DNA of 31,236 nucleotides, taken from assembly GCA_015231685.1 (NCBI GenBank), contig JADGBA010000002.1, forward strand, positions 1-31,236. The letters run 5' to 3'. This document shows, in pieces, positions 1 to 1,296 of this stretch. The notes below the pieces were generated by a model. It saw only the letters and a list, made by a program, of their open reading frames with translations. It did no database searches and had not been told where the DNA came from. The first letter of the stretch is position 1; each line of letters begins with the position of its first letter. The DNA comes from Candidatus Omnitrophota bacterium. GTDB taxonomy: Bacteria; Omnitrophota; Gorgyraeia; 2-02-FULL-51-18; JAGOUK01. The position numbers and the translations under genes are program-made.

Positions 1-295
1 TAGACATCCCCGAAGCGGCGCAGCCGTTCGATCTGAATTTGACGCGTGTTGACGGTTGCCCAGTCCGGAGGATCCGCAGACTCCTTGAAGAGATTTTCGG
101 CCTCGGCGGCTTTCCGTCGAGAAGACGTCCGATCTCTTCCCATCCTATGCGTTCTTGTTTGTCCGGACCCGGAAGCTTGCCAATCGTGGCGACGATGCGC
201 TGTCGGGGACCACGCTCGGTGCGGATACTTTCCACCAAAGCCCAGTAGTCGAAGACCTGGCCGGGTTTTTTACGCTGGATACGTCGCAAGAACAT
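1..295 (-). pseudogene. IS1634-family transposase N-terminal part with a 1-nt frameshift near 102-104
   Basis: From ATG 295: MFLRRIQRKKPGQVFDYWALVESIRTERGPRQRIVATIGKLPGPDKQERIGWEEIGRLLDGKPP. The family-like continuation (AENLFKESADPPDWATVNTRQIQIERLRRFGDV) is in a different frame (codons from 101 down to 3). Not in the ORF track. Confidence 0.8.
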
Positions 296-301
296 ACTCT
301 C

Positions 302-330
302 ATTATCGACGGACCAGAAGGACTATTCAA
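302..330 (-). promoter_or_regulatory. sigma70-type promoter for the transposase, probably giving a leaderless mRNA
   Basis: TTGAAT (330-325), 17 bp, GATAAT (307-302), 6 nt, then ATG at 295; no Shine-Dalgarno. Confidence 0.6.
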
Positions 331-481
331 TGGGGTGGTCTTCACTACAAAAGGATTTTTGCGAACCGTCCTTGTTGGACAAGAGGTTACAACTGCGAGA
401 GGGCGGAAATCGGGGTGATTATTTGGATAACTGCGGAACTTGGGCTAACCGGACGTCCGGGGGGAGACGTTAGAAAGGACA

Positions 482-751
482 TCATCGGACCAGACTGGAC
501 GAAGTATATTTGGTTGTCTTAGTGTCATCGTCACAAAAGCAGGGATTCATCGCCCCCACAAGTATGAAATCCGCCGGGAACACTATCGTCGCCTAGGTCC
601 GCGCGATCACGATCCGCCCGTCTTCCATCGGCTGGCGAAGGACCTCAAGCACGTTTCTTCTGAATTCAGGCATCTCATCGAGGAACAGCACGCCGTGATG
701 CGCGAGATTGATCTCCCCGGGCTTGGGAATGGCCCCTCGACCGACGAGCGC
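482..751 (-). pseudogene. comM: Decayed internal fragment of ComM/YifB (Mg-chelatase-like AAA+ helicase)
   Basis: [72 protein letters not shown]. It matches the ComM core motifs (LAHxGVLFLDE, LRQPxEDG, FPAxFxLVxAMNPC), with an in-frame TAG at 593-595 and a TGA at 482-484; the N-terminal half is absent. Confidence 0.88.
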
Positions 752-768
752 CGTGCCTCGGAATTTAT

Positions 769-841
769 GTGTCCTGCCCGGTGTCCAAATAGTGTCCACT
801 TTGGGTGCAGATGGACACCAAATCATACCAATGGACACCAA
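769..841. repeat. Cluster of five GTGTCC/GGACAC motifs (candidate integrase arm-type sites)
   Basis: GTGTCC at 769, 781 and 792; inverted GGACAC at 813 and 833, the latter two within the direct repeat ATGGACACCAA (811-821, 831-841). The functional label is inference. Confidence 0.65.
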
Positions 842-903
842 CGGAACTTGGGGTTTTTCAGAGTGAAGCGAGAATTTCAGAGAGAGCGGAACCGGGGCGC
901 GTT

Positions 904-945
904 TTCATTGCGAACGAAGCGCTCTCCCAGCTGAGCTACAGCCCC
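904..945 (-). tRNA. Truncated tRNA-Ala (anticodon CGC), 5' 42 nt only
   Basis: GGGGCTG TA GCTC AGCTGGGA GAGC G CTTCG TTCGCAA TGAA: Ala acceptor 5' strand, complete D-arm and anticodon loop TT-CGC-AA. Downstream there is no pairing T-arm, no acceptor 3' strand and no CCA. Confidence 0.85.
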
Positions 946-972: not shown

Positions 973-1296
973 TTATTGTTCCTGCGTATTTTTACGAACC
1001 CAGTCCAGGTAAGGCGCGCTGCCATCCTCGACGGACAGCCGGACCACTTCCGGACATTCGTACGAATGAAGCTCCGAGACTCTACAGCTGAGCTTTTCAA
1101 ATAACGCGCTTCGCGTCTTCGCCAGAAGGAGCGTCTCCGTCGAATCTTCCACGCGCTCCTGCCAGCGATAAATCGAGTGGGCGCTATCCATCACGTTGAC
1201 ACACGCCGCCAGCCGCTCTTCCACAAGAGTTCGGGCAATCCGCCGCCCCTCATCCGGAGTGGCCGCGGTGATCAACACCACGCTCACGCCCGACAT
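973..1296 (-). CDS. cutA: Divalent-cation tolerance protein CutA
   Basis: IARTLVEERLAACVN, SIYRWQ and ELHSYECPEV motifs; 107 aa. Confidence 0.95.
   Translation of the reverse strand: MSGVSVVLITAATPDEGRRIARTLVEERLAACVNVMDSAHSIYRWQERVEDSTETLLLAKTRSALFEKLSCRVSELHSYECPEVVRLSVEDGSAPYLDWVRKNTQEQ

Follow-up and report, generated by a model that had tools for sequence, protein, structure and literature searches.

A half tRNA-Ala(CGC) gene in an Omnitrophota contig as the probable left attachment junction of an integrative element with TGGACAC arm repeats

Introduction

Integration of mobile DNA into the anticodon loop of tRNA genes by lambda-type integrases is textbook knowledge. A contig from a Candidatus Omnitrophota metagenome-assembled genome (MAG) carries a tRNA-Ala(CGC) gene that breaks off shortly after its anticodon loop, and the question that this locus raises is what cut the gene at that point and where the rest of it went. 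An earlier note, made from the sequence alone, had proposed that a tyrosine integrase crossed over within the anticodon loop and that the incoming element used the less common polarity, leaving the 5' half of the gene stranded. Here, we follow up this proposal in the window, which comprises the entire 31,236-nt contig (G000:C184), in the rest of the source MAG (200 contigs, 1.38 Mb, 63% complete), and in related loci from the same phylum and beyond. The assembly holds no sequence past the left edge of the window.

The 5' half of a host tRNA gene at its native locus

On the minus strand of the window, positions 945 to 904 correspond to positions 1 to 42 of tRNA-Ala(CGC): the acceptor strand, the D arm, the anticodon stem, the 7-nt loop, and 4 nt of the 3' stem. 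The loop with the CGC anticodon lies at 914 to 908, and the gene breaks 4 nt past it; the description of the fragment as a perfect 42-nt 5' half was thus borne out both by the sequence itself and by an alignment with six intact orthologues. ARAGORN called zero tRNAs in the window, and the Rfam tRNA model scored the fragment at 25.7 bits, below its gathering score of 29. Since Rfam misses displaced tRNA halves (even at loose thresholds, it missed a known one in locus L021), we sought such halves with a home-made tRNA 5'-half profile run in nhmmer, which matched the window fragment with an E value of 2e-7, a score in line with those of other left ends.

The gene cutA (973 to 1296, minus strand; 107 amino acids [aa]; Pfam CutA1, E value of 9.9e-35) lies on the host side of the junction, with a 27-nt spacer between its stop codon and the tRNA half, and is itself preceded by a DUF2582 gene. 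The order DUF2582-cutA-tRNA is conserved in the same-family genomes G001, G003, G004, and G005. When relatives with cutA were compared, as the earlier note had suggested, an intact tRNA-Ala(CGC) gene followed cutA at every one of the six loci fetched from the same family or order. The window matches these six orthologues up to tRNA position 42 and diverges completely beyond it. Because the relatives hold the whole gene at this place and divergence sets in only after position 42, the alignment confirmed the fragment as the 5' half of the host's own tRNA-Ala(CGC) gene, in its native place and with its native upstream flank.

Neither an intact tRNA-Ala(CGC) gene nor its 3' half was found in the window or in the 63% complete MAG. 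A 16-nt match to a tRNA 3' end on contig C26 lies inside a coding region and was dismissed as a chance match. The genes 3' of tRNA-Ala(CGC) vary among the family relatives and offer no handle for locating the contig with the other junction.

Repeats at a fixed distance past the break

Directly after the break, on the tRNA strand, come 105 nt of unrelated sequence (799 to 903, minus strand), which diverge from all of the orthologous tRNA 3' halves and which we interpret as the core-proximal part of a left (P'-type) arm. This stretch weakly resembles the left arm of an element in genome G284, with ~76% identity over 62 nt. It also contains a TGAAATT box at 879 to 873, which resembles a box (TTGAAAT) found 15 to 25 nt past the break in other left arms.

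Next comes a cluster of putative arm-type repeats (769 to 798, minus strand), with TGGACAC at 798 to 792 and at 787 to 781 and a degenerate AGGACAC at 775 to 769. The 19-mer at 798 to 780 consists of two direct TGGACAC copies 11 nt apart and constitutes the signature of the family described below; the window arm thus has the canonical repeat pair plus one extra copy. Measured from the end of the anticodon loop (908), the distance is 110 nt to the first copy and 121 nt to the second. The exact TGGACAC heptamer occurs 8 times across the 31-kb window, and four of these occurrences fall within 58 nt (781 to 838). The unrelated sequence, repeats, pseudogene, and insertion sequence (IS) that had been reported after the break are all present, in the form of the TGGACAC copies, a comM/yifB fragment, and the end of an IS1634-family element.

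Two of the TGGACAC copies in the 105-nt stretch are inverted; they lie at 812 to 818 and 832 to 838 on the plus strand, 20 nt apart, between the core and the direct copies, and are absent from the other left arms that we compared by reading. A match in genome G365 to the inverted-repeat part of the arm lies inside a repetitive coding region and was set aside as chance. In two other left arms (L043:1326-1528 and L048:1326-1528), a strong hairpin followed by a run of T residues ~50 nt past the break resembles an intrinsic terminator and looks as though it would halt transcription that proceeds from the host tRNA promoter across the stranded 5' half. A comparable terminator-like hairpin is not evident in the window arm.

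Mapped elements in relatives strand a 5' tRNA half

Seven contigs of relatives carry two repeat pairs in direct orientation, 5.7 to 16.3 kb apart, and all seven have a tyrosine integrase gene whose 3' end lies in the right-hand pair. In five of these mapped elements, a 5' tRNA half lies on the left and the cognate tRNA lies on the right, on the same strand, after the integrase gene. The targets are tRNA-Pro(GGG) in G284, tRNA-Met(CAT) in G305 and in G108 (where the contig end cuts the right-hand tRNA after 28 nt), tRNA-Arg(TCG) in G206, and tRNA-Pro(TGG) in G135. That five of seven mapped relatives share this layout supports the less common polarity, with a stranded 5' half, that the earlier note had proposed for the window.

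The five left halves extend from position 1 of the tRNA to 0 to 4 nt past the loop and lie 116 to 127 nt before the left pair. When the displaced half is compared with the restored tRNA of the same mapped relative, identity stops 0 to 6 nt past the loop, and over the family, displaced halves span tRNA position 1 to positions 38 to 44. The G206 element carries T29 in its displaced half, which pairs with A41 of the gene, and G29 in its restored tRNA; such a difference is the mark expected if the restored gene were a chimera of an element-borne 5' half and a host 3' half.

The geometry recurs outside the mapped elements. The tRNA starts 88 to 95 nt after the right pair in 14 further integrase-bearing loci of the phylum. 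Among the matches listed in a cross-phylum scan, it starts at +71 to +96 in 14 loci with a scored integrase and at +71 to +95 in about ten more in which the integrase was unscored. For pairs that lack an integrase, the 5'-half profile placed the end of a tRNA half ~121 nt before the pair in seven loci of the phylum, and in 10 loci elsewhere, among the matches listed, the half ends at -121 to -137. The gene disrupted in the window is a recurrent target, since tRNA-Ala(CGC) was found at three left ends (L043, L057, and L059) and three right ends (L049, L050, and L165). Over the phylum and cross-phylum loci, at least 23 tRNA isoacceptors are combined with the invariant arm signature.

Two elements depart from the prevailing layout. 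In G294 (L065, G294:C3), an element at tRNA-Asp(GTC) has the ordinary polarity, with a complete tRNA at the left end and a 3' fragment following the integrase gene, so both polarities occur with one arm signature. In G064 (L068, G064:C74), whole tRNA-Ser(CGA) genes lie at both ends of a 14.4-kb element; the two genes (1717-1805 and 16416-16502 of L068) differ at two acceptor-stem positions, and the attP of this element is predicted to carry a whole tRNA gene.

The integrase and the restored tRNA

The integrases of the family are 353 to 367 aa long, and their open reading frame (ORF) is whole in the integrated state. Pfam recognizes the Phage_integrase domain and a core-binding domain, and the catalytic residues R, K, HxxR, H, and Y are present. 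Identity to the integrases of phages such as Medea1 and APSE is ~35%. An AlphaFold model (pLDDT of 81.9) has an N-terminal domain of three strands plus a helix, a linker, a helical core-binding domain, and a catalytic domain, and among known structures it matches full-length lambda Int chains best (1z1b and 5j0n), with 335 to 357 aligned columns. As modeled, the integrase has the architecture of the lambda type, in which separate domains bind arm sites and core sites.

The repeats at the right end encode an invariant MDT[I/F]WT in the last codons of the integrase gene, whose stop codon lies 10 to 22 nt before the restored tRNA. Repeat conservation at the right ends could arise in part from coding; since copies also occur at the noncoding left ends, the repeats appear to have a role at the DNA level. 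A simple sigma-70 scan of the interval from the right pair to the restored tRNA detected no consistent promoter, and the TTGAAAT box, considered as a -35 element, was unsupported in that scan. Because the interval yielded no consistent promoter, the restored tRNA is probably made from the integrase transcript, i.e., transcribed together with the integrase gene.

A probable attL junction at tRNA-Ala(CGC)

We put at roughly 85% the probability that positions 769 to 945 of the window are the attL of an element that entered tRNA-Ala(CGC) by way of a tyrosine integrase acting across the anticodon loop, with the element supplying the 5' half. This reading follows from the half gene in its native flank, the break 4 nt past the loop, the repeats at the canonical distance, and the weak similarity to the G284 arm. 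With a direct pair of copies 11 bp apart, the second copy 121 nt past the loop, and a TGAAATT box, the window agrees with the left ends of the family. In particular, the family repeat pair 121 nt past the loop supports the proposal that a tyrosine integrase, crossing over at the anticodon loop, produced an att junction.

In the mechanism that we propose, the attP core of the family would be a tRNA 5' half, from position 1 to the loop plus 0 to 6 nt, flanked at ~120 to 130 bp on each side by a direct pair of TGGACAC copies 11 bp apart. The pairs would most likely serve as arm-type sites bound by the N-terminal domain of the integrase, and cleavage would take place at the borders of the anticodon loop. 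Integration would then join the element's 5' half to the host's 3' half, creating a whole tRNA gene 10 to 22 nt after the integrase stop codon and presumably cotranscribed with the integrase gene, while the host's 5' half would stay beside its old upstream neighbor (cutA in the window), fused to the left arm of the element.

The junction might instead be an assembly chimera, in which a cutA-tRNA locus was joined to DNA of another population through a common tRNA 5' sequence. The contig comes from a short-read MAG, the junction is only 900 nt from a contig end that falls within a repeat (an IS1634-family copy), and the half shares its first 27 nt with tRNA-Ala(GGC) of the same MAG. However, the sequence that would have been joined is itself a canonical left end that requires a tRNA-Ala(CGC) 5' half, so the kind of site would be the same either way; the common repeat is only 42 nt long; and the GC content is flat across 903/904, giving no marker of a junction. 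We therefore regard a chimera as highly unlikely. A metagenome scan with an exact 31-mer of the window left arm returned 0 matches, and in a scan with CutA, the closest relatives were 59% identical, with no near strain that has an empty or a fully occupied site.

A comM pseudogene and an IS1634-family copy next to the arm

Beyond the repeat cluster lies a fragment of a comM/yifB gene, which encodes an Mg-chelatase-like AAA+ protein (485 to 769, minus strand), as identified by Pfam Mg_chelatase, TIGR00368, and tblastn. The fragment corresponds to residues 376 to 470 of a 611-aa relative, with 56% identity in tblastn, and covers profile positions 83 to 140 of 207 in Pfam Mg_chelatase and 272 to 329 of 499 in TIGR00368. 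A full-length ComM/YifB frame of ~500 aa, with N-terminal, AAA+, and C-terminal domains, is not open here: an in-frame stop codon interrupts the fragment at 593 to 595, and the IS cuts the gene at 448/449. The comM piece is accordingly assigned, from its reading frame, as a pseudogene. It begins right at the third repeat copy, where intact elements have cargo; a comM-like gene is absent from all seven mapped elements.

The MAG has a second comM copy, of which an apparently sound 3' part stands at the end of contig C176 (6918-6964), with 83% identity over 47 nt. This part ends exactly in the region common to both comM copies of the MAG. The corresponding match between window positions 540 to 586 and the end of C176 was considered as an IS end and rejected, as it represents the conserved AMNPC region of the second comM copy.

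Positions 1 to 448 (minus strand) are the outer 448 bp of an IS1634-family element, with a 21-bp terminal inverted repeat at 428 to 448 and the transposase gene starting at 295 and running to 2. The N-terminal 67 aa of the transposase are 93% identical to 591-aa PF01609 proteins, some of which are named as IS1634 family, and the IS DNA is 75 to 83% identical to full metagenome copies that have a matching inverted repeat at their far end. On these sequence features, a DDE-type transposase and terminal inverted repeats, the segment can be placed in the IS1634 family. The transposase gene has a frameshift near 95 to 113, and the copy runs off the contig; no further copies of this element were detected in the 200 contigs of the MAG.

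This arrangement raises the alternative that the tRNA gene was truncated by an IS-mediated or illegitimate deletion that ended in it by chance, given that the IS lies 455 nt from the break, a pseudogene fills the space between them, and no integrase of the family was found in the MAG. Such a deletion is very improbable, as the end of the IS (448) does not coincide with the break (903/904), which lies at the canonical 4 nt past the loop and is followed by the family repeat pair at the canonical 121 nt, and the arm is ~76% identical to the left arm of G284.

Is the element that produced the attL junction still complete? Because a comM pseudogene, itself interrupted by the IS1634 copy, occupies the interior beside the arm, the element is at least damaged. 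A tblastn search of the MAG (63% complete) with the family integrases returned Xer-like matches with 24 to 30% identity and one 49-aa stretch with 47% identity, and no second repeat pair was found in the MAG. These results bear on a further possibility, that the junction is a fossil: integration took place as described above, and later deletions and rearrangements, of which the comM fragment and the IS1634 copy would be traces, removed the integrase gene and the restored tRNA, so that GCG codons are now read by tRNA-Ala(UGC) through wobble. This is a subcase of the attL reading, from which it differs in the present state of the element and not in its origin. The comM pseudogene that starts at the third repeat copy has an in-frame stop codon and is in turn interrupted by the IS; the MAG search yielded neither a family integrase, nor a second pair, nor tRNA-Ala(CGC); and truncated integrases beside repeats are known in relatives, e.g., one of 239 aa in G134. 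On the other hand, the MAG is only 63% complete, tRNAs often go unassembled, and the arm repeats are letter-perfect. We give the fossil slightly less than an even chance, and between a live but damaged element and a fossil, the odds are roughly even. If the element is a decayed remnant, the host may have lost tRNA-Ala(CGC) through its later decay; loss of this tRNA was the alternative that the earlier note had raised.

A signature shared across phyla

When the 132 nt following the break were compared with 400 genomes of the phylum, one short stretch recurred at 100% identity, and this was the 19-mer at 798 to 780. The pattern TGGACAC-N4-TGGACAC was found at 96 sites, spread over 64 of the 401 genomes of the phylum, versus 11 sites for the reversed control. 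At least 119 stretches of a species-representative collection contain the exact 19-mer, compared with ~4 expected by chance by our own estimate. Record labels among the matches listed include Omnitrophota, Aerophobetes, Elusimicrobia, Planctomycetia, Clostridia, Latescibacterota, Zixibacteria, Rokubacteriota, and Acidobacteria.

The exact 19-mer falls, among the matches listed, under more than ten bacterial phylum labels and in three archaeal MAGs (Methanosarcinaceae, Promethearchaeota, and Aenigmatarchaeota); this distribution could reflect spread across domains or contamination of bins. At one locus (L026:1598-1647), a match to the nhaA-I riboswitch scores 49.4 bits, above its gathering score, and lies ~90 nt after a TGGACAC pair that has neither a tRNA half nor an integrase near it. 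Some TGGACAC pairs may have another context.

Relation to known integration systems

The use of the tRNA anticodon loop as the overlap region is known from the class that includes P22, HP1, and SSV1 (Williams 2002, as cited in a 2021 review, PMC8371274). The TGGACAC family resembles lambda-type elements with heterobivalent integrases in that its modeled integrase has N-terminal arm-binding-type, core-binding, and catalytic domains and aligns with full-length lambda Int, and in that the core lies at the anticodon stem-loop, repeats stand on both arms, and an excisionase-like gene lies just upstream of int. In contrast to these elements, the family has one of its arm-site pairs inside the last codons of its own integrase gene.

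With respect to polarity, a parallel is archaeal. In the 2021 review (PMC8371274), use of the tRNA 5' half is described as unique among archaea to pTN3-like integrases and as "seldomly encountered in bacteria," and recombinant tRNA genes of bacteria are said to retain their original promoter with very few exceptions. For the pTN3-like integrases of Thermococcales, the att site is a tRNA 5' half, with a minimal site of tRNA-Leu positions 2 to 44 and 41 bp shared, according to Cossu et al. (2017) (PMC5495485), an extent nearly equal to that in the TGGACAC family (1 to 38-44). Upon pTN3 integration, a full tRNA is reconstituted, but it loses its original promoter and comes under that of the integrase (PMC5495485, PMC8371274). 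The two systems differ in that pTN3 is archaeal and has an integrase gene that contains the attP and is broken in two upon integration ("suicidal"; PMC5495485), whereas the TGGACAC family lacks a split integrase of the pTN3/SSV type, its integrated ORFs of 353 to 367 aa being whole. In addition, the family has lambda-like arms, and the consulted portions of the pTN3 sources do not mention arm sites (PMC5495485, PMC8371274).

Islands of the kind collected by Islander and TIGER likewise have ends marked by a displaced fragment and a regenerated gene (PMC4383910), whereas the window displays only one end. In its configuration filter, Islander allows for both arrangements, a 5' fragment upstream of the tRNA gene or a 3' fragment downstream of it (PMC4383910); tools limited to 3' fragments would overlook islands such as those described here.

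In the papers searched on Omnitrophota integrases, tRNA sublocation, and the repeat, no description of this integrase family, its signature, or its spread across phyla was found. The mechanism, integration at the anticodon loop with a 5' half, is already known and is rare in bacteria; the more notable result is the family-level arm signature combined with many tRNA cores. We consider it an even bet that these elements form an undescribed lambda-type family that crosses phyla, with an invariant arm signature in the last codons of its integrase, swappable 5'-half cores from at least 23 isoacceptors, and a host tRNA made dependent on the element. If so, the family would have a naturally modular, retargetable attP; each integration would leave a host tRNA dependent on an element-borne 5' half located 10 to 22 nt behind the integrase gene, and the element would hold an essential tRNA hostage. 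Its fixed arms and swappable cores would make it attractive for work on integrase retargeting.

For the source genome, the junction would explain the tRNA pseudogene and mark the start of foreign DNA, and tRNA-Ala(CGC) may have been lost or may now rely on a mobile element. More broadly, the 5'-half polarity that has been described as rare in bacteria is the rule for this family in Omnitrophota, Aerophobetes, Elusimicrobia, Planctomycetia, Clostridia, and other phyla, and the 19-mer together with the fixed spacings provides a simple and precise means to find both element ends in fragmented MAGs.

Interior genes of the elements

The elements share an excisionase-like gene just upstream of int as well as XRE-type regulators. 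Several of them carry genes that look like replication genes, as judged from N-terminal sequences read by eye and from BLAST clusters. The 16-kb element of locus L064 (G305:C2) has four large interior genes encoding 465 to 893 aa, and the N terminus of one of them resembles a TIR domain by eye, which suggests defense cargo.
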